From assembly GCA_964467905.1 (NCBI GenBank), contig CAYXSY010000007.1, positions 116 through 64,115 on the forward strand: a DNA stretch of 64,000 bases. The letters are read 5' to 3'. Position 1 is the first letter of the stretch; the number at the start of each line of letters is the position of its first letter. Shown here piece by piece: positions 20,386 to 49,388 of this stretch. The notes below the pieces were generated by a model that saw only the letters and a program-made list of their open reading frames with translations, was not told the DNA's origin and ran no database searches. A program made the position numbers and the translations under genes. This DNA is from an uncultured Planctomycetales bacterium. GTDB taxonomy: Bacteria; Omnitrophota; Gorgyraeia; Gygaellales; Profunditerraquicolaceae.

Positions 20386-20502
20386 TTGACAGGTTGTTGA
20401 TTTGTGGTATATTCCTTTTAATTGGTGAGTACGAAGACGTCTTACCTTGGAACAAGGGAGACGTCTTTTTATTTTTATAAATAGTGCCTAAAAATTAGGC
20501 AC
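20386..20502 (+). promoter_or_regulatory. promoter plus leader attenuator in front of the Nfn/GltA-like operon
   Basis: TTGACA (20386-20391), 16-nt spacer, TGgTATATT (20405-20413). Terminator: 9-bp stem 20434-20442/20459-20467 and an inner 5-bp stem 20445-20449/20453-20457, followed by TTTTTATTTTT. A competing hairpin 20424-20446 (GGTGAG...CTTACC) could act as an antiterminator. A further 8-bp hairpin lies at 20484-20502, just before the RBS. Confidence 0.65.
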
Positions 20503-24299: not shown

Positions 24300-24554
24300 T
24301 TGACAAGGCTCTAATAGTATGTTATTCTTTTCTTAACAATTTAAAAGAGCACAAGGTTGTGCTTAAGATAAAGGACAAAGGCGTTATATAACAATATAAC
24401 GCCTTTTTCTTTTTTATCCTATTCTATGTGAGAATAATTTTATAAAAGTAAGCCCTTCATGCCCGGTCACTTAGAGGGAGAACGGGGTTTTACTTTTTAT
24501 GTAAACAATGGCGTTTTATGCCGTAATCCGGCATAGAACGCCTTTTTATTTTTT
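24300..24554 (+). promoter_or_regulatory. promoter plus two tandem hexaloop-hairpin/terminator attenuators upstream of GAF-ANTAR paralog 2
   Basis: TTGACA (24300-24305), 17-nt spacer, TGtTATTCT (24320-24328). P1 AGCAC-AAGGTT-GTGCT at 24348-24363. P2 GAC-AAAGGC-GTT at 24374-24385, overlapping terminator 24377-24416 (GGCGTTATAT/ATATAACGCC + T-run). Second unit: AAAC-AATGGC-GTTT at 24503-24516, overlapping terminator 24510-24554 (14-bp stem + TTTTTATTTTTT). Confidence 0.7.
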
Positions 24555-33279: not shown

Positions 33280-33714
33280 TTGATGGGGTTAGTAAAGAAA
33301 GTAGTTCTGTGGTCACAGACTAAATCTCCGTGGGTTTTGCATTTTAACACCGGAGCGTGCAATGCCTGCGATATAGAAATTGTTGCCGCCTTGACTCCGC
33401 GGTATGATTTGGAGCGTTTTGGCGTGCAGCTTAAAGGTACCCCCAGGCATGCAGATATCTTATTATGTTCAGGTCCGGTTACAAAACAAATCGAATGCCG
33501 CCTGAAGAGAATTTATGAGCAGATGCCTGAGCCAAAATTTGTAGTAGCTGTGGGTACTTGTGCTTGTTCCGGAGGGGTGTTCAACGGCTGTTATAATGTT
33601 GACGGCGGTATTAATAAGGTAATTCCGGTTTCAGCCTATATACCCGGATGTCCTGCCAGTCCCAAGGCAATTATTGACGGAGTAGTTAAGCTTTTAGCAA
33701 GCGTCAAAGATTAA
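33280..33714 (+). CDS. [NiFe] hydrogenase small subunit, NuoB/MbhJ-type
   Basis: Four Cys for the proximal [4Fe-4S] cluster in the NuoB pattern (GACNACDIE, GTCACSGG, IPGCPASP). Confidence 0.88.
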   Translation: MMGLVKKVVLWSQTKSPWVLHFNTGACNACDIEIVAALTPRYDLERFGVQLKGTPRHADILLCSGPVTKQIECRLKRIYEQMPEPKFVVAVGTCACSGGVFNGCYNVDGGINKVIPVSAYIPGCPASPKAIIDGVVKLLASVKD

Positions 33715-33738
33715 ACTTTCTTTAAAGGATAGAAAACG

Positions 33739-34200
33739 ATGCAGGAAGATATTATTAAGGATAAGCTGGAATCAAGATTTAGTTATCTCAAGGGCGCTGT
33801 TTCTGTCTCCAGAATTTCACGTCTATCTATTGAACTAAAGAAAGAAAACCTTAATGAGGTTTTAGATTATTTGATTCATGAGTTTGGATTTAAAAAGCTT
33901 TCTACGATTACCGGGATTGATTTAGGTGATAACTTAGAGTTAATTTATCACTTAGATGGAGGAGGGAGCTTGATCATCAATGTAAAGGTTCGTCTAGAGA
34001 GGGATAACCCCCGCATTAATACGGTAATCCCGTATTTTTTGAATGCTGATACATACGAACGCGAGCTCGTGGATTTATTAGGCGTTAATGTAGATGGTTT
34101 GCCTAAGGGTAACCGTTATCCGCTCCCGGATAACTGGCCGCAGGGGCAGCATCCTTTACGTAAAGATTGGCCGGGCAAGATTAGCCAAGGAGGTGTTTAA
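33739..34200 (+). CDS. NuoC/MbhK-like hydrogenase subunit
   Basis: 153 aa with NuoC-type motifs (ERELVDLLGV, YPLPDNWP). Sits between the NuoB- and NuoD-like genes. Confidence 0.8.
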   Translation: MQEDIIKDKLESRFSYLKGAVSVSRISRLSIELKKENLNEVLDYLIHEFGFKKLSTITGIDLGDNLELIYHLDGGGSLIINVKVRLERDNPRINTVIPYFLNADTYERELVDLLGVNVDGLPKGNRYPLPDNWPQGQHPLRKDWPGKISQGGV

Positions 34201-34201
34201 A

Positions 34202-35440: not shown

Positions 35441-35442
35441 AT

Positions 35443-36384
35443 ATGGCAAAGATTATTTTACAAATCCTTATCTTTCCCGGTTTCCTTTTTCTTTTTATGT
35501 TCGGGCTTTTCGCCGAATACCTGGATCGCAAGCTTTATGCCCGTTTTCAGAATAGAATTGGTCCACCGTGGTTTCAGCCGTTAGCCGACTTTATAAAATT
35601 ATTGAGTAAGGAAGATATAGTTCCTGAAGAGGCCGATGCCAGGATATTCAAGCTTATGCCAGTTTTTGCGCTTACGGCTACAGTGAGCGCGTTTTTATAT
35701 ATCCCTACCTGGAGTAAGGAGGCCATTTTTTCCTTTAACGGAGACGTCATAGTTGTCTTATATCTGTTGACTATCCCGACTTTGACTTATTTTCTCGGCG
35801 GGTGGTATTCGCGTTCAGTTTATTCTATGATAGGTGCTATACGTTCTTTGACCCAATTGTTTGCTTATGAGGTGCCGCTTTTTATGACAATACTGGCTTC
35901 GGCATTACTGGCAGACAGCTGGTCTCTGAGTAATATGGTCAGTTTTTATAATGCCCATCCCTGGTATTGGCTTTTTAACATACCGGGATTTTGTATCGCT
36001 TTGATTTCCTTATTGGGTAAGTTAGAGAGGGTGCCGTTTGATATTCCGGAAGCAGAGACTGAGATAGTCGCGGGAAGCTTTACTGAATACAGCGGCAGGC
36101 TCCTTGCGCTTTTTCGTTTGTCTTTGGATATAGAGTTAGTCGTCGGAGCATCTTTATTAGCAGCAGTCTTTATGCCGTTCGGTTTGGGCTTTCATTCATT
36201 ACTGGGTTTTGTATTATATATCGTTGAAACTTTATTTATTATAGGGGCGGTTGCTTTCTTACGCTCGATATTTGCGCGCCTCAGGTTAGATCAGATGATT
36301 GCTGTTTGCTGGAAATATTTTGCCCCTGTGGCGTTTTTACAGGTTCTTCTTAACTTGATTTTGAAAGGAATACTTCCAAGATGA
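35443..36384 (+). CDS. NuoH/MbhM-like membrane subunit
   Basis: 313 aa and polytopic, with NuoH signatures (RKLYARFQNRIGP, FAYEVPL, ERVPFDIPEAETEIVAG). Confidence 0.85.
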   Translation: MAKIILQILIFPGFLFLFMFGLFAEYLDRKLYARFQNRIGPPWFQPLADFIKLLSKEDIVPEEADARIFKLMPVFALTATVSAFLYIPTWSKEAIFSFNGDVIVVLYLLTIPTLTYFLGGWYSRSVYSMIGAIRSLTQLFAYEVPLFMTILASALLADSWSLSNMVSFYNAHPWYWLFNIPGFCIALISLLGKLERVPFDIPEAETEIVAGSFTEYSGRLLALFRLSLDIELVVGASLLAAVFMPFGLGFHSLLGFVLYIVETLFIIGAVAFLRSIFARLRLDQMIAVCWKYFAPVAFLQVLLNLILKGILPR

Positions 36385-36773
36385 GTAGGCCAGGTAAGGT
36401 TACTAGGCAGGTTTTGTCTTCTTTGACCAAGAAACCGGCAACTATAAATTATCCGCGCCAGGCATCCCCTATGCCTAAAGGATTCCGCGGTAAACTTAAA
36501 TTTAATCCCGATCTTTGTATAGGGTGCCGTATGTGCATGCGTGATTGCCCTACGGGAGCAATAGAAATACGCAAAGTAGCCGATAAAACATTCGAGGCAG
36601 TAATAGATTTGGGTAAATGTATATATTGCGGACAATGTGCGGATTCCTGTATAAAAAAAGCCATACAGCTGACAGGCGATTTCGAGCTTGCCGAGCTTGA
36701 TTATAAGAAGCTTAATATTATTTTTAAGAATGAACCATCTGAAGGAAGCTCTCAGGGGCAAGCTAAAGAATAA
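36381..36773 (+). CDS. 2x[4Fe-4S] ferredoxin subunit, NuoI/MbhN-type
   Basis: CIGCRMCMRDCP and CIYCGQCADSC motifs. ATGA overlap with the upstream gene. Confidence 0.85.
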   Translation: MSRPGKVTRQVLSSLTKKPATINYPRQASPMPKGFRGKLKFNPDLCIGCRMCMRDCPTGAIEIRKVADKTFEAVIDLGKCIYCGQCADSCIKKAIQLTGDFELAELDYKKLNIIFKNEPSEGSSQGQAKE

Positions 36774-37227
36774 GCACAAAATTGTTGTCTTAGGTATAGG
36801 TTCTGATTTCAGGGGTGATGATGCCTCTGGGCTTATGGCCGCTAGAATTGTTTTAAGAAGGATATCCAGGCGTAAGACGCCAGGCAGAATTAGCGCGGTC
36901 TTTGCAGAGTCAGTTCCTGAAAATATCACAGGTTTAATCCGTAAGATAAAACCTGGCTACGTTATAGTTATTGATTCTGCGCATATAGGTAAGCAGGCTG
37001 GAGATTTTTGTGTCATTGAGCCCAGCGATATAGAAAATAATCTTGTCAGTACCCATAAAGTGTCTTTGGACGTGTTCTCTAGATATCTTGAGCAGAGTAT
37101 AGGTTGTAAAATGTTTATCGTTGGGATACAGCCTAAGTCTATAAAATTCGGTTCTTCTGTTACTAAACAGGTAGCATTAGCCGCAAAAAAAGTAGCCGTT
37201 ACGTTAATTGAGCTTGACAAGGCCTGA
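36730..37227 (+). CDS. hydrogenase maturation endopeptidase (HycI-like)
   Basis: KIVVLGIGSDFRGDDASG, then DSAH and VSTHK. Met at 36730 is chosen; the track start at 36688 lies deeper inside the previous gene. Confidence 0.75.
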   Translation: MNHLKEALRGKLKNKHKIVVLGIGSDFRGDDASGLMAARIVLRRISRRKTPGRISAVFAESVPENITGLIRKIKPGYVIVIDSAHIGKQAGDFCVIEPSDIENNLVSTHKVSLDVFSRYLEQSIGCKMFIVGIQPKSIKFGSSVTKQVALAAKKVAVTLIELDKA

Positions 37228-37375: not shown

Positions 37376-37900
37376 ATGAGTGATTTTGAGATTTTATTAA
37401 AAAGAATATCGCCGGTTTTAAAAAGAATAACCTTTAAATTAGGCGGATATCATACTTTTCTTAACGAAGAAGATTTATATCAGGAAGCCCTGGTATTTTT
37501 ATGGCAAAAATTAGGCTTGGGCGAGCTTTCTGATAAGACGGATAGTTATATACTACAGGGTTGTTATTTTCATCTTAAGAATTATATAAGAAAAAAATAC
37601 AAGAAGATTAATTTTATAAGCATAGATAATATTATAAATGCTGAAGAAGATAACACGCGCAGTGGTTTTTCATTGAAAGATGAGAAATCGCTTTATTACA
37701 GAGACGAGCTTAATGCCAGGTTTATTGCGGATTCTATACGCAATAACGGGTTAGACGATAGAGAAAAAGAGATTGTGGGCTATTATGCGCAGGGTCTTAC
37801 TACCAGGGACATAGGGAAACGATTAGGCCTTTCCCATGTACGTATAGTAAAAATAACCGCCGAAATACGGGTTAAATGCCGCAAGCATATAGATTATTGA
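37376..37900 (+). CDS. ECF-like sigma-70 family factor (regions 2 and 4 only)
   Basis: Region 2 is EDLYQEALVFLWQK. Region 4 HTH is REKEIVGYYAQGLTTRDIGKRLGLSHVRIVKI. No anti-sigma gene is evident next to it. Confidence 0.65.
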   Translation: MSDFEILLKRISPVLKRITFKLGGYHTFLNEEDLYQEALVFLWQKLGLGELSDKTDSYILQGCYFHLKNYIRKKYKKINFISIDNIINAEEDNTRSGFSLKDEKSLYYRDELNARFIADSIRNNGLDDREKEIVGYYAQGLTTRDIGKRLGLSHVRIVKITAEIRVKCRKHIDY

Positions 37901-37971
37901 TTTTGTTGTTACCAATTCATGTAAATTGTTACTTGTATAAGTGAAACACATTGATGTGTAGTAGTAAAGCC

Positions 37972-38009
37972 AAGGATGCTTAAGTTTTAAGTATCCTTTT
38001 TTTGTTTTT
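37972..38009 (+). terminator. intrinsic terminator after the sigma-factor gene
   Basis: A 12-bp stem AAGGATGCTTAA/TTAAGTATCCTT (one G-U pair), 3-nt loop, then TTTTTTTGTTTTT. Confidence 0.75.
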
Positions 38010-38012
38010 ATC

Positions 38013-38066
38013 AAGACGTTGGTGTCTTTTTGGCATTGGAGTCGCCAGGAAGGCGCCATTTTTTTT
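38013..38066 (+). promoter_or_regulatory. AAGAC-N6-GTCTT hairpin plus U-run, then a GC hairpin plus T8; alternatively a sigma54-like -24/-12 element
   Basis: AAGAC-GTTGGT-GTCTT at 38013-38028, followed by TTT. CGCC-AGGAA-GGCG at 38043-38055, flanked by TGG/CCA and followed by T8 (38059-38066). TGGCAT-N5-TCGC at 38031-38045 matches the GG/GC spacing of sigma54 promoters. Confidence 0.4.
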
Positions 38067-38092
38067 GCGCAACCAGAAAAAGGAGAGGTTTT

Positions 38093-38860
38093 ATGCGTAA
38101 GGCTATGTGCTTATTATTGTTAGTTTTTGCTCTTCACGGATTTGTTCTCGCAGGCGAAAGTCCAGAAGCCACATTGTTAGGAAAATCCGGTTTTGAGGTC
38201 AGCGGCGATGTTTCGTTTTTCACTCAATACATATGGAGAGGTTTTGTTTTAGACAGAGATGCTGTTTTTCAGCCGGGTATTTATATATCCAGTCCAAAGT
38301 CTAAGTTCGGCAGGGTAAAAGGCGGGTTTTGGTCTAATGTTCCTTTGCAGAATAAAGATGATTTGAGTTCGCAAGAGTACGATTATATATTCGATTACAC
38401 TTATGATTTTAAATATGCGAGCGTATCTTTAGGGCATACTTATTATGATTTTTCCGGCACCCATACTTATAGCAAAGAGTTTTACGTTGGCTTGAACCTG
38501 CCGGGGATCTTTCTATCCCCATCAGTGTATTATTACCGCGATTACGGAGACCCTAAACATGGCGGCGGGCTTGGTAGTTATACCGTTGTAAGCGCTTCCT
38601 ATAGCTTACCGCTAGACTTAAAAAATATACCCTGCAGCCTTGATTTATCCGGTCATGTAGGTTTTAACCATAATTTGTTCATGGATGGCGATGGCGGAGA
38701 TGTTGCTTTAAAAGTAGGTTTTACAGTGCCAATTACCAAGAATCTTAAACTGACGCCCAATGTAAATTATTCTATTCCTTTCGGCGATTTAAGGGATAAG
38801 GACCACGCTAATCAGAAAGACAGGTTCTTTGGAGGCGGAACTTTAGCGTATGTATTTTAG
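38093..38860 (+). CDS. outer-membrane beta-barrel porin (TorF/Gcw_chp-like) linked to amtB
   Basis: Signal peptide MRKAMCLLLLVFALHGFVLA. Alternating beta-strand pattern, an SGDVSFFTQYIWRGF N-terminal motif, and a C-terminal ...LAYVF. Good RBS (AAAGGAGAGG) before ATG 38093. The track TTG start at 38030 is rejected. Confidence 0.6.
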   Translation: MRKAMCLLLLVFALHGFVLAGESPEATLLGKSGFEVSGDVSFFTQYIWRGFVLDRDAVFQPGIYISSPKSKFGRVKGGFWSNVPLQNKDDLSSQEYDYIFDYTYDFKYASVSLGHTYYDFSGTHTYSKEFYVGLNLPGIFLSPSVYYYRDYGDPKHGGGLGSYTVVSASYSLPLDLKNIPCSLDLSGHVGFNHNLFMDGDGGDVALKVGFTVPITKNLKLTPNVNYSIPFGDLRDKDHANQKDRFFGGGTLAYVF

Positions 38861-38881: not shown

Positions 38882-40111
38882 ATGGTAAACGCAGGTGATA
38901 CGGCGTGGGTTTTAATTTCGGCAGCTTTGGTAATGTTAATGGCACCGGCTTTGGCATTCTTCTACGGTGGGATGGTCAGGCGTAAGAATATTTTAAGCGT
39001 CCTTATGCAATGTTTTATTGTTCTTTGCGTTCTAAGCGTGCAGTGGGTATTATTCGGGTACAGTCTTTCTTTCCATCCTTCAGGCGGATTCTGGGGTGGG
39101 TTTGGCTGGGCGGGATTAAATGGAGTAGCTTTAGAGCCGTACGCGGATTACGCAGCTACGATACCGCATCAGGCGTTTATGATTTTCCAGGGCATGTTTG
39201 CGGTCATAACCCCGGCTTTGATTATCGGAGCTTTTGCCGAGAGGATGAAGTTTTCCTCTTTCCTTGTTTTTACATTGCTATGGGCAATGTTTGTATATAA
39301 CCCTCTTTGTCACTGGGTTTGGGGTATAGGGGGATGGCTTCGTAATTTAGGAGCGCTTGATTTTGCCGGAGGTACGGTTGTGCATATCAATGCTGGTATA
39401 GCTGCTTTAGTAACTGCTTTTGTAATCGGCCGCAGGAAGAATCTTGAGCAGAATATTCCTGCACCGCACAATATGCCTTTTGTAATATTAGGTACAGCTT
39501 TACTTTGGTTTGGTTGGTTTGGTTTCAATGCCGGCAGTGCTTTATCCGCCAACGGTATTGCAGTGAACGCTTTTGTAGTTACTAATACTGCTGCTGCAGC
39601 CGCAGGATTAAGTTGGGCATTGATTGAGTGGATACGTAATGGCAAGCCTACAATATTTGGGCTTGCAAGCGGCGCGGTTGCCGGATTAGTGGCCATTACG
39701 CCCGCGGCAGGATATGTTAATGCTATCTCGGCCATCATAATAGGCATAATGGTAAGCATGTTTTGTTTTACTGCCGTAAGCGTTATAAAGCCAAAACTCG
39801 GATACGATGATTCGCTTGATGCTTTTGGGGTGCATTGTGTAGGAGGCATTTGGGGAGCTTTGGCTACCGGATTGTTTGCTTCCAAGGTAGTCAATCCTTC
39901 CGGATCAGACGGGTTGTTTTTCGGAAATCCCAATCAGTTTACGGTGCAGTTAATAGCAGTTTTAATAACTATAGTCTATACAGCCGTTGTTACCATGATT
40001 ATATATAAGGTTGTGGATTTGTTTATCGGGGTCAGGGTTGAAGAGAAGGATGAATTAATCGGTCTGGATGTTACTCAGCACCATGAAAGAGCGTACACTA
40101 TATTAGAATAG
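38882..40111 (+). CDS. amtB: ammonium transporter
   Basis: AFFYGGM, DFAGGTVVHINAG and DAFGVHCVGGIWG (the twin-His pore motifs), with 11 TM helices. Confidence 0.93.
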   Translation: MVNAGDTAWVLISAALVMLMAPALAFFYGGMVRRKNILSVLMQCFIVLCVLSVQWVLFGYSLSFHPSGGFWGGFGWAGLNGVALEPYADYAATIPHQAFMIFQGMFAVITPALIIGAFAERMKFSSFLVFTLLWAMFVYNPLCHWVWGIGGWLRNLGALDFAGGTVVHINAGIAALVTAFVIGRRKNLEQNIPAPHNMPFVILGTALLWFGWFGFNAGSALSANGIAVNAFVVTNTAAAAAGLSWALIEWIRNGKPTIFGLASGAVAGLVAITPAAGYVNAISAIIIGIMVSMFCFTAVSVIKPKLGYDDSLDAFGVHCVGGIWGALATGLFASKVVNPSGSDGLFFGNPNQFTVQLIAVLITIVYTAVVTMIIYKVVDLFIGVRVEEKDELIGLDVTQHHERAYTILE

Positions 40112-40122: not shown

Positions 40123-40464
40123 ATGAAGTTGATAATTGCTATAATACAGCCGTATAAGCTAGAAGAAGTAAAAGAGGAGCTTTATAAGTCGGAAGTTAAT
40201 CTTATTACTGTCAGCGAAGTCCTAGGCCATGGCCGCCAGAAAGGTGTCACGGAATTCTACCGTGGTAATAAAGAAACCGGCAACCTCCTGCGTAAAATAC
40301 GCCTGGAAATAGCGGTAAATGAGGATTTTGTTGAGCCTACGATAAAGGCGATCGTCAAAGGGGCTAAAACAGGAGAGACAGGAGACGGAAAGATTTTTAT
40401 TCTGGATTTAAAAGAGTGCGTGCGGATACGTACGGAAGAAAGGGGCTCATTGGCTATAGGGTGA
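40123..40464 (+). CDS. glnK: P-II nitrogen regulatory protein
   Basis: 113 aa: MKLIIAIIQPYKLEEVKEEL, a T-loop GHGRQKGVTEFYRG containing the Tyr, and a DGKIFI motif. Adjacent to amtB. Confidence 0.92.
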   Translation: MKLIIAIIQPYKLEEVKEELYKSEVNLITVSEVLGHGRQKGVTEFYRGNKETGNLLRKIRLEIAVNEDFVEPTIKAIVKGAKTGETGDGKIFILDLKECVRIRTEERGSLAIG

Positions 40465-40531
40465 AAAAAGATGTTACCAAAGTACAGGTTTATTTACTTG
40501 TATATATAGATAATCAAAGCTCGTTTTTTTA

Positions 40532-40611
40532 GCACATCGTAGTGCAAAAATAGGCATAAAGAAGACAGGGGCGTTCTTCAATCGCAAGGAAGGACGCCTC
40601 TTTATTTTTTT
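40532..40611 (+). promoter_or_regulatory. dual hexaloop hairpins plus terminator between glnK and glnN
   Basis: P1 GCAC-ATCGTA-GTGC at 40532-40545. P2 GAC-AGGGGC-GTT at 40564-40575, overlapping a 13-bp terminator stem (40567-40579/40589-40601) followed by TTTATTTTTTT. An extended -10 TGgTATAAT at 40620-40628 lies downstream of the terminator. Confidence 0.6.
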
Positions 40612-40656
40612 ATAGGCTGTGGTATAATAAAGAAAATTATTCATAGGAGGGTGTAT

Positions 40657-42849
40657 ATGAGTATCCGACAGGAAGCATTATTTAAGATAAAAAGTGTTGA
40701 ATTGCCGAAAGTGGTTTTGCCGAAGAAAACATCTTCTTATTTCGGAGAAAATACTTTTAGCCTTCAGGCTATGCAGAAACATATATCCAAAAGCACTTTT
40801 GAAGCTTTTAAGAAATGGATTTCTGAAGGTAAGACTATTAGCTTAGAACAGGCTAATGAGATTGCCTCTGCCATGAAGGACTGGGCAATATCCAAGGGCG
40901 CTACATATTATACGCATTGGTTCCAGCCTATGACCGGTCTAACCGCGGAAAAGCACGATAGTTTTATATCTATATCTGCTCCGGGAAAGGTCATTGAGAG
41001 ATTTTCAGGCTCAAAGTTGATTCAGGGAGAGCCTGACGCTTCGAGTTTCCCTTCCGGAGGAATACGTGCTACTTTTGAAGCGCGCGGTTACACCGCTTGG
41101 GATCCTTCAAGCCCGGCATTTATTATTGAGAGCAAGCTTGGCAAGACCCTATGTATACCCACCATATTTATTTCTTATCATGGAGAGTCTCTCGATAAAA
41201 AGCTGCCTCTTTTAAGATCAGATGAAGCTTTAAGTAAGGCGGCTATAGGCTTGCTTAAACTATTTGGCCACAAAAATGTAAAAAAAGTATTTTCTACATG
41301 CGGCCCGGAGCAGGAGTATTTCTTGATTGATAAGAATTATTATAATTTACGTCAGGATCTGATTATGGCAGGCAGGACTCTTGTAGGTGCTCCTTCTCCT
41401 AAGGGACAGCAGCTTGAGGATCAGTATTTTGGCACGATTAAAGAGCGGGTAGTAAATTTTATGTTTGAGGTGGCAGAAGAAGCTTATAAGCTGGGTATTC
41501 CTCTTATGACGCGCCATAACGAAGTTGCACCTCACCAGTATGAATTCGCACCTATCTTTGAAGAATCGAATATTGCCGCAGATCATAATCAGCTTTTGAT
41601 GGAGTTAATGAAAAAAGTTGCATTGAGGCATAATTTAGTCTGTCTTTTGCATGAGAAACCCTTTGCCGGGATTAATGGCAGCGGGAAGCATCTTAATTGG
41701 TCTCTTGCTGATGATAAAGGAAATAACTTATTGAATCCAGGAGAGACTCCGGAAAGCAATTTACAATTTTTAGCTGTGCTTGCAGCTGTCTTGAGAGCGG
41801 TTTATCTGCATGCGGATCTGTTGCGTGCTTCTGTGGCTTTGGCTGGCAATGAACATCGCCTTGGTGCAAATGAAGCACCTCCTGCGATTATCAGTGTTTT
41901 CTTGGGCGAACAATTGACCAATATTCTTGATATGATCGAGAAGGGTTCTAAGAGCAGTGTTTCTAAACGGGATATTATTGATCTGGGTATTGCGCGTTTG
42001 CCCAGGTTTAATAAGGACACCACTGACAGAAATCGCACTTCACCTTTTGCTTTTACCGGTTCGAAATTCGAATTTCGCGCGGTGGGTTCATCGCAAAACA
42101 TATCAACGCCTATTACGGTAATTAATACCATTATTGCCGAAAGCCTCGATTATGTGGCAGAGAAGATAAATAGGGCCCAAGAAGGCAGGGATTTCAACAG
42201 CGCGGTTATGCGAGTCATTAGTGAGATTATCAAAGAGACTAAAGACGTGCGTTTTGAGGGGAATAATTATTCTGAGGATTGGTTAAAGGAGGCAAAGAAA
42301 AGAGGCCTGCCAAATGTCGCCGCTACTTATGAAGCGCTCGAGGCTTTAACTAGGAAGCAAAATATAACCATGTTTGAGAAATATAAAGTTTTCTCTAAAG
42401 AAGAGCTTCTTGCAAGATACCATATATGGGTGCATATGTATAACCTTACTCTAGAGATTGAGGCCAATACCTTGAATGAAATGGTTAATGCTTCAGTGGT
42501 GCCCGCAGGCTATGAATATGAGAAATTGCTTGCGCGTACGCTTGATGAGTTGATAAGACTTCAAAAGACCGCTGGTTTGAAGCTGGATGCAGCTGCCGTT
42601 AAGGATAAGAAGGAGCATTTAAGAGATATAGTTTCCAAAATTTATTACGTGCGCCATAATACCGCAGAGATGGTTAAATTGCTGGAGCATGCGCAAAAAA
42701 TTAATAATGAGAAACGCGCCCAGCTTTATTTTAAAGAGCTTAAGCCGCTGATGGATCATATACGCAGGCACGTAGATCAGCTTGAGTGCGTTGTTTCTGA
42801 TGATGCTTGGGATCTTCCTAAATACAGAGAAATGCTTTTTATAAAATAA
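40657..42849 (+). CDS. glnN: type III glutamine synthetase
   Basis: About 730 aa, the GSIII length class, with GSIII-type catalytic motifs (FGENTF near the N-terminus, NGSGKHLNWS, NRTSPFAFTGSKFEFR). AGGAGG lies 6 nt upstream of ATG 40657; the track uses GTG 40651. Confidence 0.88.
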   Translation: MSIRQEALFKIKSVELPKVVLPKKTSSYFGENTFSLQAMQKHISKSTFEAFKKWISEGKTISLEQANEIASAMKDWAISKGATYYTHWFQPMTGLTAEKHDSFISISAPGKVIERFSGSKLIQGEPDASSFPSGGIRATFEARGYTAWDPSSPAFIIESKLGKTLCIPTIFISYHGESLDKKLPLLRSDEALSKAAIGLLKLFGHKNVKKVFSTCGPEQEYFLIDKNYYNLRQDLIMAGRTLVGAPSPKGQQLEDQYFGTIKERVVNFMFEVAEEAYKLGIPLMTRHNEVAPHQYEFAPIFEESNIAADHNQLLMELMKKVALRHNLVCLLHEKPFAGINGSGKHLNWSLADDKGNNLLNPGETPESNLQFLAVLAAVLRAVYLHADLLRASVALAGNEHRLGANEAPPAIISVFLGEQLTNILDMIEKGSKSSVSKRDIIDLGIARLPRFNKDTTDRNRTSPFAFTGSKFEFRAVGSSQNISTPITVINTIIAESLDYVAEKINRAQEGRDFNSAVMRVISEIIKETKDVRFEGNNYSEDWLKEAKKRGLPNVAATYEALEALTRKQNITMFEKYKVFSKEELLARYHIWVHMYNLTLEIEANTLNEMVNASVVPAGYEYEKLLARTLDELIRLQKTAGLKLDAAAVKDKKEHLRDIVSKIYYVRHNTAEMVKLLEHAQKINNEKRAQLYFKELKPLMDHIRRHVDQLECVVSDDAWDLPKYREMLFIK

Positions 42850-42905
42850 AAGCTTTTAGATATATAGAGTACGCTGTAGTATTCTAAAGAATATTTTCTA
42901 AGAAA

Positions 42906-42964
42906 GAACATCGACGTTCATAAAAGTTGGATTATTTTTCCAGCTTGGATGAACGTCTTTTTTT
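42906..42964 (+). promoter_or_regulatory. hexaloop hairpin overlapping a terminator between glnN and the mini-NtrC/gltB genes
   Basis: GAAC-ATCGAC-GTTC at 42906-42919 overlaps the 5' arm of stem GACGTTCAT/ATGAACGTC (42913-42921/42949-42957), followed by TTTTTTT. Confidence 0.55.
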
Positions 42965-43024
42965 ATCCATTATGCCATAATGGAATATTCTTATAACAAG
43001 CATTGATTAAGGTTTGGGCAAAAT

Positions 43025-43402
43025 ATGATAACTATATTGATAGCTGATGATGAAATTAAGGCAAAAGAAAACCTTGTTAACGTGTTAAAGCAGGGCGGCT
43101 ATGACTTAGCGGATGGTTTCGCGGCGGATAATACTATAAGATTTATGAGGAAGAAGGATATAAGTGATTTATCTTTCGTCAGGGATATAGTTATTGAGTT
43201 AGATGATTCTTTGATTAAAGAGAATAAGGGCGCATTATACAGAACTGTACTTGAGGCCATAGAAAAGCCTTTGTTTGAGCGCATACTGGAGCGTACAGAG
43301 GGCAATCAACTTAAAGCCGCTAGGATACTAGGGATAAACCGTAATACTATGCGTACCAAGATGAAGAAATTCGGGATAAATATAAACAAATGGAAAATAT
43401 GA
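43025..43402 (+). CDS. mini NtrC-like protein: receiver-domain remnant plus Fis-type HTH, no AAA+ domain
   Basis: The N-terminus MITILIADDEIKAKENLVNVLKQGGYDL looks like receiver beta1-alpha1-beta2. The C-terminus LYRTVLEAIEKPLFERILERTEGNQLKAARILGINRNTMRTKMKKFGI is a typical NtrC/Fis HTH_8. Only 125 aa. Overlaps the gltB start. Confidence 0.6.
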   Translation: MITILIADDEIKAKENLVNVLKQGGYDLADGFAADNTIRFMRKKDISDLSFVRDIVIELDDSLIKENKGALYRTVLEAIEKPLFERILERTEGNQLKAARILGINRNTMRTKMKKFGININKWKI

Positions 43403-46400
43403 GAGAATATAATCATTTTCCCAGAAAGCAAGGGCTTTACGATCCTGCATTTGAGCATGATGCGTGTGGAGTAGGTTTTGTCTGTAATATCAAAGGTAAA
43501 CGCAGTAATAAGATCGTCCGGCAGGGGCTTGAAGTTTTGGAGCATCTGTCTCATCGTGGCGCAACCGGGGCCGACCCTAAGACAGGAGACGGGGCGGGGA
43601 TATTAATACAGATGCCACATAACTTTTTTGCTGCTATTTTAGATGGCACTAATATTAATCTTCCTGTAGCCGGAGAATACGGCACAGGGTTAGTATTCCT
43701 TCCTGTTGATAGTGCTGAGCGTAATTGGTGCAAGGACTTATTTAGCAAGGTTATCAAAGAAGAGGGGCAGGTTCTATTGGGCTGGAGGAAAGTTCCCGTA
43801 GATAACAGTTGCATAGGGCATACAGCGCGCAGCAGCCAGCCTGAAATCGAGCAGCCTTTCATTAAGAAAAGCGGCGAATTCTCGGATGACCTTGGCTTTG
43901 AAAGAAAACTTTATATTATCAGGAAGAGAATAGAAAACCAAGTGCGGTCTTCAAAGATAAGGCAAAAGAGTTTCTTTTATATTACCAATCTTTCTTCCCG
44001 GACTTTTTCTTATAAAGGTCTTTTAATGAGTGAGCAGTTAAGGAGTTTCTTTAAGGACTTATCCGACGAGCGGATTGCTAGCGCCATATCCCTGGTGCAT
44101 TCCAGATACAGCACCAATACTTTTCCCACCTGGGATTTGGCTCAGCCGTTTAGGTTTATCGCCCATAATGGAGAGATTAATACTTTACGCGGGAATATAA
44201 ATTGGATGCGCGCCAGACAAGGGCTATTGAAAAGTAAGTTGTTCGGTAAGAAGTTAAAACAAATATTTCCTGTTATTGTTCCGGGTGGAAGCGACTCGGC
44301 TACGCTGGATAATGTGTTTGAATTACTCATGCTTTCAGGAAGGGACCTGGCGCATGTTATGCTTATGCTTATACCCAGTGCCTGGGAACAGAACAAACTT
44401 CTTGCTAAGGGATTACGGGATTTCTATAAATATCACGCTTGTATTATGGAACCCTGGGATGGCCCGGCAGCGATTGCTTTTAGCGACGGGAAAAGAGTTG
44501 GTGCGGTGCTTGATAGAAACGGGTTAAGGCCGGCGCGCTATATTATTACCAGAGACGATACCGTGGTTATGGCATCGGAGGTGGGGGTTTTGGATATCCC
44601 TGCAGAAGATATCATTAGTTCGGGCAGGCTTAATCCGGGTAAAATATTCTTTATTGATACAGAACAGGGCCGTATTGTTGATGATAAGCAGATTAAAGAA
44701 GGCATCTCAAAGAAATCTGAATTTGGTTCTTGGTTGAAAAACAATATGCTTGAGTTGGATAATCTGCCTTCTGTTAAGGATAAGAAGCCGGACAAAACAG
44801 ATACGGCTGTTTTGTTGAAGGCTTTTGGTTATAGTCGCGAGGACTTAAAATTCATTATCAAACCCATGTTTGAAAACTCTCAGGAGCCGGTGGGTTCAAT
44901 GGGTAATGATACCCCGCATGCTGTTTTATCGAAGAGGAGCCAGCTACTATATTCTTATTTTAAGCAACTGTTTGCACAGGTGACGAATCCCGCTATCGAT
45001 CCTATCAGGGAGGAACTCGTTATGAGTTTAGACACTTACCTGGGGCCGGAGGGTAATTTACTTGATGAATCAGCTTTACATTGTCATAAGCTGCAAGCCA
45101 GGCGTCCGGTACTTACTGACGAAGAGCTTGCAAGAATACGTTTTATAAAAATTAATGGTTTTAAAACCAAGACTATCCCGTTGCTTTTTAAGGCAGCTGA
45201 TAAAAAAGATTTTTTGAGAGCGCTTGAGCGCATATGCAGGGAGTCAGAGAAGGCCATTAAGGATAAATATACGTTTATTATTTTAAGTGATAGGGGAGTC
45301 AGCAAGGAACATGCGGCTTTGCCTGCTTTACTTGCAACCGGAGCCGTGCACCATTATTTGATAAAGAAAGCATTGCGTAATCAGATAAGCATCATATTAG
45401 AGAGTGCCGAGCCCAGGGAGGTTCATCATTTTGCTCTGCTATTTGGCTACGGCGCAGATTGTATCAATCCCTATCTTGCTTATCGGGCGTTGGGTTATAT
45501 CATAAATGAAGAAAAAACCAAAATCGATTTAAAGACTGCAACGCTCCGTTATATAAAAGCCGTAGATAAGGGGATCTTAAAGATTCTTTCTAAAATGGGG
45601 ATTTCTACTCTACAGAGCTACCGCGGGGCCCAAATATTTGAAGCTTTTGGTATAAACGATAAGGTTATAGAGCGCTGTTTTGCAGGGACGGCCTCCAGAA
45701 TAGGCGGTGTTGATTTTGAGCAGATTCGCAAGGAGTGTGTTTTAAGGCACGGTGATGCTTTTGTCTCCATAGGATCAGCCAATCCTAATCTGGACACAGG
45801 AGGTATATATCAATATAAGAAAGACGGGGAGTTTCATCTCTGGAATCCCGATAGCATATCCGCCTTGCAGGATTCCGTCTGGAATAATGATTATAATAAA
45901 TACAAGATTTTTGCCGGATTAATAAACAATCAACAGGGCAATCCTACGACATTAAGGGGATGTTTGAAGTTTAAAGTTGCTCAACCTGTACCGATAGAGC
46001 AAGTTGAGTCAGCTGAATCTATAGTTAGGCGTTTTGTAACCGGAGCAATGAGTTTTGGATCGATCAGCAAGCAGGCGCACGAGACGATGGCGATAGCTAT
46101 GAATAGGATGGGCGCTAAGTCTAATAGCGGAGAGGGCGGAGAAGATCCGGAGCGTTTCTTTCCACTCCCAAACGGGGATTTACGCAGAAGCGCGATTAAA
46201 CAAGTTGCATCCGGGAGGTTCGGCGTTACCACTAATTACCTGATTAACGCAGATGAATTACAGATTAAGATTGCGCAGGGGGCAAAGCCGGGAGAGGGGG
46301 GGCAGCTGCCGGGGCATAAAGTAAGCCCTATAATTGCCAAGACGCGTTATACAACCGCAGGCGTAACTTTGATTTCTCCACCTCCGCATCACGATATTTA

Positions 46401-47931
46401 TTCGATTGAGGATTTGGCACAGCTGATATTTGATTTAAAGAATACCAACCCCCGTGCGCGAGTAAGCGTTAAGCTTGTATCCGAGATAGGAGTAGGGACA
46501 ATAGCTGCCGGAGTAGCTAAAGGACATGCTGATATGATTTTGATTTCAGGGGGTGACGGCGGCACAGGAGCTTCCCCGCTTAGTTCTATAAAACACGCAG
46601 GTCTGCCTTGGGAATTGGGAATCTCCGAGACGCATCAGACTTTGGTCCTAAATGATTTAAGAAGCAGAGTAAGGCTGCAAGCCGACGGACAGATGCGCAC
46701 CGGACGAGATATAGCAGTTGCCTGTCTTCTGGGAGCGGAAGAATTCGGGTTTGCTACGGCAGTCTTGATTACTCTTGGTTGTGTTATGCTGAGGCATTGC
46801 CATTTAAATAATTGTTCAGTGGGCATAGCTACGCAGGAAGAGCTATTGTGCAATAAATTTCATGGTAAGCCGGAGTATATAATTAATTATTTTAGATTTG
46901 TGGCTGAGGAGTTGCGTGAGATTATGGCATCTCTTGGCTTAAGGACTATTAACGAGATGGTAGGTAGGACCGAGTTTCTGGAGATAAATAAAGATATACT
47001 GCCCTGGAAAGCAACGGGCCTGGATTATTCCCGCATTCTTTACAAGCCTAAGACAGCAAAGAGAGAGGATGTTTATTGTTCTGTTGCCCAGAACCACGGT
47101 CTGGAGAATATTTTAGATAAGAAATTAATAGTTTTGTCAGATAAAGCCCTTAAGAATAAACAAAGTGTTAATATGGAGCTTACGGTTAACAACACTAATC
47201 GTACTACGGGCGCGATGTTAAGCGGTGAAGTTTGCCGTCTCCACGCAGAGGAGGCTCTTGCAGAAGATACTATTTACTGTAAGTTTAGGGGAGTTGCCGG
47301 ACAGAGCTTCGGTGCTTTCCTGGCTAAAGGTATTACTTTTGAACTTGAGGGTATGAGTAATGATTATGTAGGGAAAGGGATTTCAGGTGGCAAGATTATC
47401 ATTTATCCTGATCGTAAAGCTAGGTATGCACCGGAAGAAAACATAATTATAGGTAATACTACTTTTTACGGGGCGATAAATGGCGAGGCCTATATAAACG
47501 GTATAGCTGGTGAGCGTTTTTGCATACGTAATTCCGGGCTCCTGGCAGTAGTAGAGGGGGTAGGAGATCACGCCTGTGAATATATGACTGGGGGTAAGGT
47601 TGTTGTGTTGGGCAAAACAGGGAGGAATTTCGCTGCGGGTATGTCCGGAGGGGTTGCTTATGTTTATGATGAAAGTAATGATTTCAGAAATAAATGCAAT
47701 ATGGAGATGGTTGAATTAGGGGCCCTGGATAAAGAAGATAGAGAAAATCTGCATATGCTGCTTAATAATCACTATAGATATACAAAAAGTAATAAAACGC
47801 GCATTATACTTGATGATTTCGTGACTCAAGCAAAGAAATTTGTCAAAGTAATGCCGATTGAATATAAGAAGATATTAGAACACAAGAAGCTGGAAAAGAA
47901 AATGGAGCTTGCGGAGGTATCGGACGGTTAA
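43390..47931 (+). CDS. gltB: glutamate synthase large subunit
   Basis: 1513 aa. Ntn-amidotransferase Cys in HDACGVGF, a central domain, an FMN/3Fe-4S domain (SGEGGE, ISGGDGGTGASP, C..C cluster region), and a C-terminal GXGXG beta-helix domain. The exact start (43390 or 43399) is uncertain. Confidence 0.95.
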   Translation: MENMREYNHFPRKQGLYDPAFEHDACGVGFVCNIKGKRSNKIVRQGLEVLEHLSHRGATGADPKTGDGAGILIQMPHNFFAAILDGTNINLPVAGEYGTGLVFLPVDSAERNWCKDLFSKVIKEEGQVLLGWRKVPVDNSCIGHTARSSQPEIEQPFIKKSGEFSDDLGFERKLYIIRKRIENQVRSSKIRQKSFFYITNLSSRTFSYKGLLMSEQLRSFFKDLSDERIASAISLVHSRYSTNTFPTWDLAQPFRFIAHNGEINTLRGNINWMRARQGLLKSKLFGKKLKQIFPVIVPGGSDSATLDNVFELLMLSGRDLAHVMLMLIPSAWEQNKLLAKGLRDFYKYHACIMEPWDGPAAIAFSDGKRVGAVLDRNGLRPARYIITRDDTVVMASEVGVLDIPAEDIISSGRLNPGKIFFIDTEQGRIVDDKQIKEGISKKSEFGSWLKNNMLELDNLPSVKDKKPDKTDTAVLLKAFGYSREDLKFIIKPMFENSQEPVGSMGNDTPHAVLSKRSQLLYSYFKQLFAQVTNPAIDPIREELVMSLDTYLGPEGNLLDESALHCHKLQARRPVLTDEELARIRFIKINGFKTKTIPLLFKAADKKDFLRALERICRESEKAIKDKYTFIILSDRGVSKEHAALPALLATGAVHHYLIKKALRNQISIILESAEPREVHHFALLFGYGADCINPYLAYRALGYIINEEKTKIDLKTATLRYIKAVDKGILKILSKMGISTLQSYRGAQIFEAFGINDKVIERCFAGTASRIGGVDFEQIRKECVLRHGDAFVSIGSANPNLDTGGIYQYKKDGEFHLWNPDSISALQDSVWNNDYNKYKIFAGLINNQQGNPTTLRGCLKFKVAQPVPIEQVESAESIVRRFVTGAMSFGSISKQAHETMAIAMNRMGAKSNSGEGGEDPERFFPLPNGDLRRSAIKQVASGRFGVTTNYLINADELQIKIAQGAKPGEGGQLPGHKVSPIIAKTRYTTAGVTLISPPPHHDIYSIEDLAQLIFDLKNTNPRARVSVKLVSEIGVGTIAAGVAKGHADMILISGGDGGTGASPLSSIKHAGLPWELGISETHQTLVLNDLRSRVRLQADGQMRTGRDIAVACLLGAEEFGFATAVLITLGCVMLRHCHLNNCSVGIATQEELLCNKFHGKPEYIINYFRFVAEELREIMASLGLRTINEMVGRTEFLEINKDILPWKATGLDYSRILYKPKTAKREDVYCSVAQNHGLENILDKKLIVLSDKALKNKQSVNMELTVNNTNRTTGAMLSGEVCRLHAEEALAEDTIYCKFRGVAGQSFGAFLAKGITFELEGMSNDYVGKGISGGKIIIYPDRKARYAPEENIIIGNTTFYGAINGEAYINGIAGERFCIRNSGLLAVVEGVGDHACEYMTGGKVVVLGKTGRNFAAGMSGGVAYVYDESNDFRNKCNMEMVELGALDKEDRENLHMLLNNHYRYTKSNKTRIILDDFVTQAKKFVKVMPIEYKKILEHKKLEKKMELAEVSDG

Positions 47932-47932
47932 A

Positions 47933-49357
47933 ATGGGCGATATCAAGGGGTTCTTAAAGGTTAAAAGGGATACGGTCGATTACCGGCCGGTATGTGAAAG
48001 GGTAAACGATTTTTGTGAAGTTTGTCTTTTGCCTAAAGAAGAAAAGTCTAAGGCTCAAGCATCACGTTGTATGGATTGCGGCACTCCTTTTTGTAATTGG
48101 GCTTGTCCATTAGGAAATTATATACCGGAATGGAATGATTTTATGTTTAAGGGCAATTGGGAGAAAGCATTGGAGCTTTTATCGGCGACGAACAACCTGC
48201 CTGAGGTTACCGGCAGAATTTGCCCAGCCCTATGTGAATATTCCTGCGTTTTGGGCATTAATGACGAAGCTGTTTCTATCAAGGATAACGAGCTTGCAAT
48301 TATCGAGTACGGTTTCAAGCATAATTTAATCAAACCTAGGCCGCCGGAGCGCCGTACGGGAAAGAAAGTAGCTGTAGTCGGCTCGGGTCCGGCCGGGCTC
48401 TCTTGTGCAGATCAGTTAAATAAGGCAGGCCACAGGGTTGTTGTTTTTGAAAGAGATGATGCTATAGGCGGTATCTTGCGTTACGGGATACCGGATTTTA
48501 AATTGGAAAAAACTATACTTCAGCGGCGCCTGAATATTATGAAAAAGGAAGGCATCAAATTTATGACTTCGGTTAATATCGGGTTTGACATGGGTATAGA
48601 CAAGCTAAAGAAAGAATTTGATGCCATATGTCTTGCCGGTGGCAGCCGCGTTCCGCGCGATTTAAATATAGCAGGCAGAGAATTGAAGGGGATACATTTT
48701 GCCATGGATTATCTTATGCAGTCAAATAGGAGGATAGCTAAACAAAAAATAAGCCTAGAAAAGCTCATTGATGCTAAGGGCAAGAAGGTAGTAGTTATCG
48801 GAGGAGGAGATACTGGAGCTGATTGTGTGGGTGTCGCCCATCGTCAAGGAGCTTCCTGTATTGTGCAAATAGAATTGTTGCCTAAGCCTTCGGAATCAAG
48901 GACTAAAGATTTCCCTTGGCCGAAATACCCCGCAATTTTAAAGACTTCTACCAGTCATGATGAAGGCGGAGAGCGTCAATGGTCAATTCTCACCAAGCGT
49001 TTTATCGGAGAAGGTGGAAGGGCTAAAAAATTGCTTTGTGCCAAGGTTAATGTAATCAGGGATCCCTCCGGAGTTATTAAGATAGAGGAAATACGGGGGA
49101 CAGATTTTGAAATCGATGCCGATTTAGTTATTCTGGCGCTTGGGTTTTTGTGCCCTGAGAAAAAAGGCATTATCGAGGATTTGGGCCTTGAGCTTGATCA
49201 GCGCGGTAACGTTAAAACAGATATCAACTTTATGACTTCTATAAAAGGTATATTCTGCGCAGGAGATATGCATAGAGGACAATCTTTGGTGGTCTGGGCT
49301 ATTTTAGAGGCGCGTCGGGCAGCTCTTAGCATAGATAGGTATCTTATGTCTGATTAA
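47933..49357 (+). CDS. gltD: glutamate synthase small subunit (NADPH)
   Basis: RCMDCGTPFC and CPALCEYSC clusters, plus VAVVGSGPAGL and VVVIGGGDTGADC dinucleotide folds. Met at 47933 (MGDIKGF) follows the gltB stop by 1 nt. The track start at 47909 is rejected. Confidence 0.93.
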   Translation: MGDIKGFLKVKRDTVDYRPVCERVNDFCEVCLLPKEEKSKAQASRCMDCGTPFCNWACPLGNYIPEWNDFMFKGNWEKALELLSATNNLPEVTGRICPALCEYSCVLGINDEAVSIKDNELAIIEYGFKHNLIKPRPPERRTGKKVAVVGSGPAGLSCADQLNKAGHRVVVFERDDAIGGILRYGIPDFKLEKTILQRRLNIMKKEGIKFMTSVNIGFDMGIDKLKKEFDAICLAGGSRVPRDLNIAGRELKGIHFAMDYLMQSNRRIAKQKISLEKLIDAKGKKVVVIGGGDTGADCVGVAHRQGASCIVQIELLPKPSESRTKDFPWPKYPAILKTSTSHDEGGERQWSILTKRFIGEGGRAKKLLCAKVNVIRDPSGVIKIEEIRGTDFEIDADLVILALGFLCPEKKGIIEDLGLELDQRGNVKTDINFMTSIKGIFCAGDMHRGQSLVVWAILEARRAALSIDRYLMSD

Positions 49358-49388
49358 AAAGTGAGCATCTGTGGCTTTGCGTTTGGTA

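Follow-up and report, generated by a model that had tools for sequence, protein, structure and literature searches.

The window analyzed here is a stretch of 64,000 nucleotides (nt) from an uncultured Omnitrophota bacterium (contig CAYXSY010000007.1, positions 116 to 64,115), and we focused on a small open reading frame (ORF) of its forward strand, at 43025..43402 (ATG at 43025, TGA at 43400-43402, 125 amino acids (aa)). FisL is the name that we coined for the Fis/NtrC-type regulator encoded by this ORF. The gene order around it is amtB (38882-40111), glnK/PII (40123-40464), glnA-III, which encodes a type III glutamine synthetase (40651-42849), fisL, gltB, gltD, pyrG and carA, with fisL as the first cistron of fisL-gltB-gltD. 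The end of fisL is overlapped by gltB (43390..47931, forward strand), encoding the 1513-aa large subunit of glutamate synthase, and gltD is the downstream cistron (47909..49357, forward strand); the Pfam families of gltB and gltD were identified on orthologs. The stop codon of fisL and the start codon of gltB share an ATGA overlap suggestive of translational coupling (43399..43402, forward strand). This 4-nt overlap corresponds to the gltB ATG at 43399, and an alternative in-frame ATG at 43390 would give an overlap of 13 nt. Between glnA-III and fisL lies an ANTAR-type leader on the forward strand. It contains a first hairpin, P1, with an ANTAR-type hexaloop (TAGAGTAC-GCTGTA-GTATTCTA, 42865..42886), a second hairpin, P2 (GAAC-ATCGAC-GTTC, 42906..42919), whose 3' half overlaps the stem of an intrinsic terminator (GACGTTCAT...ATGAACGTC then T7, 42913..42964), and, between this terminator and the fisL start codon, a 17-bp dyad.

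A search of 5.8 billion proteins returned 684 FisL homologs at E <= 0.001, nearly all of Omnitrophota origin. The best 120 of these 684 were 57-100% identical to FisL with a query coverage of 97-100% and a length of 122-156 aa, all but one being of 122-129 aa, and the named sources among them were Candidatus Omnitrophota. An exhaustive profile search, with representatives clustered at 50% identity, gave 22 clusters at E <= 1e-30 and approximately 40 full-length clusters. In about 70 genome or metagenome loci, fisL was located directly 5' of gltB-gltD, mostly after glnA-III and amtB-glnK, and the linkage to gltB was near-universal over a deep divergence (40-100% identity). Because of these hundreds of near-full-length homologs and of this constant gene context, fisL is a real gene, far beyond chance. 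The preliminary description of this DNA had placed the ORF at a nitrogen locus and linked its translation to that of gltB, and had named a lack of conservation as a ground against it; the overlap and the roughly 70 syntenic loci uphold the former, and the ORF proved to be conserved, with orthologs adjoining gltB throughout these loci. Among 69 distinct fisL/gltB junctions surveyed elsewhere, we counted 26 with the same ATGA overlap, 14 with other overlaps and around 15 with gaps of at most 15 nt, so that the two genes overlap or lie within 15 nt of each other in about 80% of the junctions. Since they overlap or nearly so in most loci, the FisL family is characterised by a conserved translational coupling to gltB and, as fisL heads the glutamate synthase operon, FisL would be made whenever glutamate synthase is made. 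The near-invariant C-terminal Trp-Lys of FisL (TGGAAA/TGGAAG; 43376-43399 in the window and in orthologous junctions) sits 7-12 nt before the gltB start, and its codons may at the same time provide gltB with a Shine-Dalgarno sequence (GGAA/GGAAG), in which case the C-terminal tail of FisL would be under a dual coding constraint.

We then considered the C-terminal part of FisL, in which Pfam HTH_8 was found at residues 76-116 (52.2 bits for a cut-off of 22, E 4.9e-14), as it was in 30 of 30 aligned family members. The best NCBIfam and PDB matches were Fis, FisL residues 66-119 aligning with Fis 45-98 (E 3e-11). Models of the NtrC family matched the same region more weakly, and the matches to both families were confined to the C-terminal half. 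An AlphaFold2 model, built with a 52-sequence alignment after a first run with 30 close homologs, contained helices at residues 49-65, 71-90, 95-102 and 106-116, with a predicted local distance difference test (pLDDT) score of 84-96 over residues 71-120. Compared with the PDB using Foldseek, its top 28 matches were E. coli Fis (target-normalised template modelling score 0.79, 75 columns, 36-40% identity), and NtrC DNA-binding domains matched the last 46-49 residues of FisL only. In view of the modelled helices and the Foldseek matches to Fis, residues 49-125 (43169..43399, forward strand) are, in this model, a complete four-helix Fis-type core, within which residues 95-116 form the helix-turn-helix (43307..43372, forward strand). 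N94, G103, N105, R106 and N107 are invariant in the family, and G93, Q95, T108, R110 and K112 are nearly so; these positions align with Fis N73, G82, N84, R85, T87, R89 and K91, the residues that contact DNA in Fis-DNA structures. The preliminary description had spoken of a near-canonical NtrC helix-turn-helix and proposed annotation by profile models and structure prediction as checks. Both were carried out, with a significant HTH_8 match and a confident Fis-type core as the outcome: the Fis/NtrC type of the helix-turn-helix stands, but the core is at least as close to Fis as it is to NtrC.

The N-terminus of FisL, MITILIADDE..., resembles the start of a receiver, and it had been described beforehand as receiver-like and too short for a full receiver. 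The profile comparison agrees with this. Using hhalign, residues 2-46 of the family profile aligned in register with receiver positions 4-48 with a score of 40 (P 2e-8), compared to 9.6 ± 1.9 (maximum 15.3) for 60 column-shuffled controls and about 13 for reversed profiles, and the result was the same with a receiver profile built solely from sequences retrieved during the analysis. With single sequences, Pfam Response_reg was sub-threshold in 9 of 30 members (best E 0.0037) and CpdR reached E 0.012. As judged by these alignments and by BLASTP, the resemblance of residues 1-46 (43025..43162, forward strand; beta1-alpha1-beta2-alpha2) to a receiver is real, and this stub is probably homologous to the receiver (REC) domain, of which it would be a vestige. 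From its sequence, it is not a working phospho-receiver, because strands beta3 to beta5 have no counterpart in FisL, the first helix of the Fis core (helix A) beginning at residue 49, because D9 and D54, invariant in the close subfamily, are freely variable in the wider family, and because some orthologs are stubless. Indeed, orthologs of 111, 91, 75-85 and 61 aa lack part or all of the stub and still lie 5' of gltB. A true phospho-receiver was rejected on the same two grounds, the variation of D9 and D54 and the loss of the stub. Some of the shortened orthologs retain a fossil start, MIT(I/L)LI..E.

The stub might nevertheless be a working signal input, either a phospho-receiver or a sensor of a ligand or partner, and FisL would then be signal-responsive instead of a constitutive feedback regulator. 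The strong N-terminal conservation in the close subfamily, including D9, E10 and D54, and the location of D54 where a phospho-acceptor is expected are in line with such an input, and a partner-binding role, with PII or GltB for example, is compatible with the data. We consider a working input unlikely, as receiver-like residues number only about 46, the beta3-beta5 segment that carries the conserved Thr/Ser and Lys is absent, the two aspartates are free to vary in the wider family, and both the location before gltB and the dyad are preserved in the orthologs of 61-111 aa.

This dyad was found by aligning glnA-fisL intergenic regions. In the window, the candidate operator TGATTAAGGTTTGGGCA covers 43004..43020 (no strand assigned) and is followed by AAAT and the ATG of fisL, so that it ends 4 nt before the start codon. 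Its consensus is TG[C/A]nTAA-N3-TTA[G/A]GCA, with the positions numbered T1 G2 [C/A]3 n4 T5 A6 A7 n n T10 T11 T12 A13 [G/A]14 G15 C16 A17. A dyad with 0-2 mismatches to TGNNTAANNNTTANNCA (10 specified positions) was present in 64 of 69 non-redundant fisL upstream regions, G2 being kept in 64/64 and C16 in 63/64 of these dyads. The site at 43004-43020 scored 20.9 bits with a position weight matrix. In 863 kb of fetched loci, this matrix detected 81 sites of at least 17 bits, compared to 1.1 ± 1.2 in block-shuffled sequences, and 57 compared to 0.27 at 20 bits; as it was built from pattern-selected sites, the counts beside fisL are partly circular, and the sites at other genes, at NfnA-like loci and in Proteobacteria are independent of that selection. 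Over the whole window, TGNNTAANNNTTANNCA with one mismatch was not enriched (7 found, 4.3 expected), and the signal lies in the high-scoring sites of leaders. The 17-bp TGC-N11-GCA span is the geometry of enteric NtrC sites. The inner 15 bp of the dyad (G-n-n-T-A-A-a-w-t-T-T-A-r-n-C) fit the E. coli Fis motif GNTYAAAWTTTRANC (PMC6907758, Table 2).

Other functions of the dyad were also examined. It was found in loci without an ANTAR leader, at 12-140 nt from the ATG after insertions, and with a separate Shine-Dalgarno sequence downstream; since it is kept in the absence of the leader and when moved away from the start codon, it is not simply a ribosome-binding site. Among 48 distinct dyads, all seven pairs are possible in only 9, and 17 have A.G at positions 3-15, with no compensatory changes. 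An RNA hairpin hiding the Shine-Dalgarno sequence was thus rejected, positions 3-15 and 4-14 being mismatched in at least a third of the dyads with no compensation. A sigma-54 -24/-12 element was rejected by inspection, as the dyad lacks the GG and its spacing deviates by one position. The dyad may be the -10 element of a near-leaderless mRNA, T5, A6 and T10 fitting TAnnnT, and this would still imply repression by occlusion. A sigma-70 consensus scan, which also missed long-loop terminators, reported no promoter near the dyad. Between the terminator and the dyad, the window carries an additional perfect hairpin/palindrome, TCCATTAT-GCC-ATAATGGA (42966-42984), which is absent from the aligned orthologous leaders. 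Unrelated insertions occur at the same spot in five other loci (L025, L053, L030, L012 and L013), and the spot therefore looks like a hot spot for small insertions.

The dyad was not restricted to fisL. A second copy, the perfect palindrome TGCCTAAAAATTAGGCA (20485..20501, no strand assigned), is the best of the window with 24 bits; it follows an ANTAR-type leader and lies 18 nt before an NfnA-like/GltD-like operon (20520-22790) that adjoins gdhA. In separately fetched NfnA-like loci, a dyad occurred at most 150 nt upstream in 18 of 78, mostly at -20 to -44, and only 5 other sites were found in the 375 kb of these loci. Dyads not belonging to fisL also precede glnA-III (6 loci), homologs of the 550-aa glutamate-synthase-domain gene of the window (3 loci, L056, L075) and a GAF-ANTAR-fisL-like operon of a second clade. 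As stubless orthologs of 61-91 aa keep the dyad together with the gltB position, the Fis-like core is the relevant part. Two proteobacterial loci, L080 and L081, were retrieved solely for an NtrC sharing the helix TEGNQLKAA..LGINRNTL. In Altericroceibacterium endophyticum, the dusB(nifR3)-ntrB-ntrC operon is preceded by the dyad TGCCTATAATTTAGGCA, then ctat and ATG (L080, 2650-2666), and the operon for a PAS kinase and NtrC of a deltaproteobacterial metagenome-assembled genome is preceded by the dyad TGCCCAAAAAATAGGCA (L081, 3560-3576); both lie 3-7 nt before the ATG of the first gene. The dyad of L080 holds a perfect TATAAT, suggesting an NtrC-occluded promoter for a nearly leaderless mRNA. 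In Caulobacter, the NtrC motif determined by chromatin immunoprecipitation sequencing is reported to resemble those of Fis and NtrC in E. coli, and NtrC represses its own operon (bioRxiv 10.1101/2023.06.06.543975).

Two weaker dyad matches of the window were TGCTTAAGTTTTAAGTA (37977-37993, 16 bits), which forms the centre of a terminator-like hairpin of the amtB-operon leader, and TGATTAAAAAGTGAGCA (49351-49367, 14 bits), located where gltD ends, some 150 nt upstream of pyrG, whose product, CTP synthase, is a glutamine amidotransferase. By chance, approximately 2 sites scoring 12 bits or more would be expected in the window. The second clade (L076-L079) consists of short Fis-like proteins of 85-103 aa with a different N-terminus, whose genes are not located 5' of gltB. 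In L079 (5198-6255), the fisL-like gene follows a 235-aa ORF matching the GAF-ANTAR proteins of the window, in an apparent two-gene operon, and L078 also has a GAF-ANTAR match. The dyad of these four loci, mostly with a normal Shine-Dalgarno sequence, is about 750-800 nt upstream of the fisL-like gene; in L076 and L078, it is just downstream of gltB-gltD.

Compared by BLASTP with the 489-aa NtrC-type activator of L081, FisL gave two collinear matches, residues 3-45 with 14-58 (36% identity, E 0.004 as a single comparison) and residues 71-121 with 439-489 (57% identity over 51 residues, E 7e-18). A single in-frame deletion of approximately NtrC residues 59-430 would yield the FisL architecture, and FisL would then descend from an NtrC-like response regulator by loss of the part from receiver alpha2 to the C-terminal DNA-binding domain. 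FisL gave no match to Pfam Sigma54_activat, and its alignment with the ntrC model TIGR01818 covered model positions 401-462 only (40 bits for a cut-off of 559). The suggestion made beforehand of an NtrC without AAA+ domain, its central part deleted, has largely held: one internal deletion, giving a "mini-NtrC", is largely supported by the sequence comparisons because of the two collinear matches and because the same dyad precedes real ntrC operons.

From these results we propose the following mechanism. FisL, presumably as a dimer, would bind the dyad just upstream of its own start codon, and also the same dyad at other glutamate and glutamine operons (the NfnA-like/GltD-like operon and, in relatives, glnA-III and the glutamate-synthase-domain gene). 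Bound FisL would lower the expression of fisL-gltBD and of the other dyad operons, acting as a roadblock or masking a nearby promoter (-10/+1), and this negative feedback would be layered on an ANTAR-controlled read-through. We consider it likely that FisL binds the 17-bp dyad. Because FisL lacks an AAA+ domain and its site falls within transcribed leader sequence, adjacent to the start codon, negative feedback would be the most likely direction, and we put repression forward as a possibility, tentatively. Overall, it seems somewhat probable that FisL is a small, conserved Fis/NtrC-type regulator of Omnitrophota, derived from NtrC, with the 17-bp dyad as its operator and a feedback on its own operon.

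Several points speak against this picture. Assigning the dyad to FisL draws on co-localisation, motif type and analogy, and another regulator, for example a 174-aa protein with Sigma70_r4 as its sole match (37376-37900), could bind it. In addition, exactly 4 nt usually separate the dyad from the ATG, and its sequence includes AGG. It may therefore have a further role in the initiation of translation or serve as a -10/+1 region. Concerning the stub, the N-terminal model is of low confidence (pLDDT 54-70 with the deep alignment and 47-70 with 30 close homologs, the deeper alignment improving the core only), and residues 37-42 are modelled as a strand where receiver helix alpha2 is expected. The stub is also well conserved in the close subfamily, so it probably retains some function; in the main clade, this is probably a role in oligomerisation or partner contact. 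Finally, a REC + HTH_8 ancestor of RegA/ActR type fits the deletion model equally well as NtrC.

A different reading of the same data is that FisL is a general, low-specificity nucleoid protein that bends DNA like Fis, located at gltB for convenience of expression, the dyad being the site of another regulator or an RNA or translation signal. Its closest relatives in sequence and structure are indeed Fis, many members are labelled "DNA-binding protein Fis" by JGI, and the dyad has an AT-rich centre and overlaps the ribosome-binding region. We find this improbable, since the gltB linkage is near-universal at 40-100% identity, the dyad is highly specific, strongly enriched over shuffled sequences and restricted to nitrogen-assimilation leaders, it is kept with a separate Shine-Dalgarno sequence and at 12-140 nt from the ATG, it lacks the covariation of an RNA hairpin, and FisL reaches 58 bits where the Fis equivalog cut-off is 99.

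The autoregulatory site proposed here differs from the one suggested beforehand, according to which the inverted repeats GCAC-N6-GTGC at 24349-24362 and 40532-40545 could be DNA sites of FisL. The repeats are present. The first, GCAC-AAGGTT-GTGC (24349..24362, forward strand), is P1 of the leader before the second of two GAF-ANTAR genes (19650-20378 and 24508-25266), and the second, GCAC-ATCGTA-GTGC (40532..40545, forward strand), is P1 of the glnA-III leader. In each case, the element is the first of two hexaloop hairpins, the second of which overlaps an intrinsic terminator. Across 35 orthologous leaders, the P1 stems varied from 4 to 12 bp, with compensatory changes on both sides and different outer pairs; the inner stem was GCAC/GTGC, ATAC/GTAT, GTAC/GTAC or ACAC/GTGT, and loop position 4 was G in 29 of 35 hairpins. 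P2 (GAAC-N6-GTTC) was conserved in 35 loci, the terminator was kept in orthologous leaders, and the fisL leader had a folding energy of -49.8 kcal/mol (z = -5.0). Because the stems covary like RNA, the loop G is kept, the second hairpin competes with a terminator and GAF-ANTAR genes are nearby, we infer that the GAF-ANTAR proteins recognise the GCAC-N6-GTGC hairpins as RNA and that these hairpins are not FisL sites. That FisL would bind these repeats and AAGAC-N6-GTCTT as double-stranded DNA, instead of or besides the binding of RNA by ANTAR, is very improbable even if the repeats exist, GCAC/GTGC is the commonest inner stem (20/35 leaders) and it resembles NtrC half-sites, since the P1 stems vary in length and sequence with compensation, the loop, an uncontacted spacer in a DNA dyad, keeps G4, a hairpin competing with a terminator follows each repeat, two GAF-ANTAR proteins are encoded nearby, and the spacing is one base under the 17-bp NtrC/Fis geometry to which the dyad corresponds exactly. 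This earlier suggestion was thus not sustained, the dyad being the better fit for FisL.

At least five leaders of the window carry hexaloop hairpins and terminators, at 20378-20520, 24281-24508, 37900-38090, 40464-40650 and 42850-43024; they precede the NfnA-like/GltD-like pair, the second ANTAR gene, the amtB operon, glnA-III and fisL-gltBD, respectively. Rfam at the gathering threshold gave no match in the window and reported none of these five leaders, which are therefore not explained by any curated RNA family. Directly upstream of ANTAR P1 hairpins, we also observed a promoter-like block, GGTTACC-N15-17-TTTACTTGTATATATAG (40473-40509 and 37910-37945), at the glnA-III and amtB-operon leaders and, in relatives, at fisL leaders. 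It was also present in L016, L018, L023, L027, L028, L030, L032, L035, L038, L060, L061 and L073, and it escaped the sigma-70 consensus scan. In L038, L022 and L008, GGTTACC is part of the inverted repeat GGTTACC-N2-4-GGTAACC. The 174-aa Sigma70_r4 protein (37376-37900) adjoins one copy and could be the factor reading this block.

Further genes related to glutamate were identified in the window, namely a 550-aa protein with the flavin mononucleotide "Glu_synthase" domain only (25369-27021), the NfnA-like/GltD-like pair (20520-22790) and gdhA (22944-24281). Before amtB, a 276-aa ORF (38030-38860) had no Pfam match; its real start is probably an ATG near 38094, after AAGGAGAGG, and the leader ahead of it is complex, several hairpins and T-runs being present. 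In related loci, unannotated ORFs of 59, 174 or 272 aa occupy the same position. The two groups of nitrogen genes are separated by a membrane-bound NiFe-hydrogenase/complex-I-like cluster (27371-37227), whose content includes Proton_antipo_M, Complex1_49kDa/NiFeSe_Hases, NADHdh and the HycI maturation protease.

For the uncultivated Omnitrophota, whose regulation has hardly been described, FisL and its dyad represent a testable, predicted regulator-operator pair for central ammonium assimilation. Our results suggest a two-layer control, with ANTAR antitermination acting on RNA and then a Fis/NtrC-type protein acting on DNA. For annotation, the family carries the database names "helix-turn-helix domain-containing protein", "Fis" and "NtrC family response regulator", as well as "DNA-binding protein Fis" often used by JGI, and both "Fis" and "NtrC family response regulator" are misleading. 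Morett and Bork (1998), as cited in PMC7166090, proposed that Fis derives from the C-terminal domain of NtrC. The FisL family would be an independent case, in which a remnant of the receiver is still visible: a large signal-dependent activator would have shrunk to a small Fis-like binder with its site kept, by a reduction route proposed earlier for Fis, but without such an intermediate. In a bolder version, which we regard as doubtful, FisL would be a living intermediate of the NtrC-to-Fis route, the internal deletion having removed the kinase input and the ATPase and left the stub, the DNA specificity and the autoregulatory operator. It would act in Omnitrophota as a DNA-level master regulator of the glutamine synthetase-glutamate synthase pathway (GS-GOGAT), downstream of ANTAR antitermination and in series with it, the stub being reused as a protein contact (PII, GltB or a second dimer). 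Literature searches found no paper on the FisL family or on a Fis-type regulator linked to gltB. FisL is a novel version of a known type of regulator and not a new principle; its new features are a remnant of the receiver, a translational coupling to glutamate synthase that has been conserved, and an operator with a small regulon, both predicted, in an uncultivated phylum.

FisL can be compared with four known systems. The fisL leader resembles ANTAR antitermination by its tandem hexaloop hairpins, the second of which competes with the terminator, and by the GAF-ANTAR genes in the same window. It differs in its relation to FisL, since the leader RNA would be bound by another protein and controls the fisL operon. 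With RegA/PrrA/ActR, FisL shares a receiver-like N-terminus followed by a Fis-type helix-turn-helix, with no AAA+ domain. The N-terminus gave a weak match to 3rqi, a 184-aa protein deposited as "Response regulator protein", which we take to be of the RegA/PrrA/ActR type. By contrast, the receiver of those regulators is complete (about 120 residues) and phosphorylatable, and they have a partner kinase, whereas FisL has approximately 46 receiver-like residues, in which the acidic pocket is not conserved. With Fis, FisL shares the four-helix dimer-type core of its model, the equivalents of N84, R85, T87, R89 and K91, all invariant or nearly so, and a predicted site that fits the Fis consensus GNTYAAAWTTTRANC. 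However, FisL is not an ortholog of Fis (58.1 bits with the NF001659 equivalog for a cut-off of 99, Fis residues 48-98 only being aligned). It has no similarity to Fis 1-44 and carries the receiver stub instead of the N-terminal beta-hairpin arm that activates invertases; its gene is operon-linked to gltBD, and that of Fis to dusB. Moreover, its dyad adds specificity at +/-6 and +/-8 (TGC...GCA) and seems restricted to a small regulon, unlike the sites of a global nucleoid protein.

Regarding NtrC (GlnG) and the other bacterial enhancer-binding proteins (bEBPs), for instance the alphaproteobacterial NtrC encoded by dusB(nifR3)-ntrB-ntrC, the HTH_8 of FisL shows an identity of up to 57% over 51 residues, with the recognition region TEGNQLKAA..LGINRNTL among them, and the first part of the NtrC receiver can be aligned with the N-terminal 45 residues of FisL. 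Both are found at nitrogen-assimilation loci, with the same 17-bp dyad ahead of the first gene of the operon. The differences are that FisL has 125 aa instead of about 470-500 aa, with neither the AAA+ sigma-54 activation domain nor a complete receiver, so that it cannot hydrolyse ATP or remodel the sigma-54 holoenzyme, that it has no conserved phospho-acceptor, and that no partner kinase gene adjoins fisL. The sigma-54 (-24/-12) pattern TGGCAC-N5-TTGC was found 36 times in the window for 40.9 expected, with none in the nitrogen-gene leaders. By these profile scores and alignments, FisL is an HTH_8 protein outside the Fis, NtrC/bEBP and RegA/ActR families proper. The feedback proposed for FisL mirrors the autorepression reported for NtrC and, by analogy, FisL probably works like the DNA-binding, autorepressing part of NtrC.

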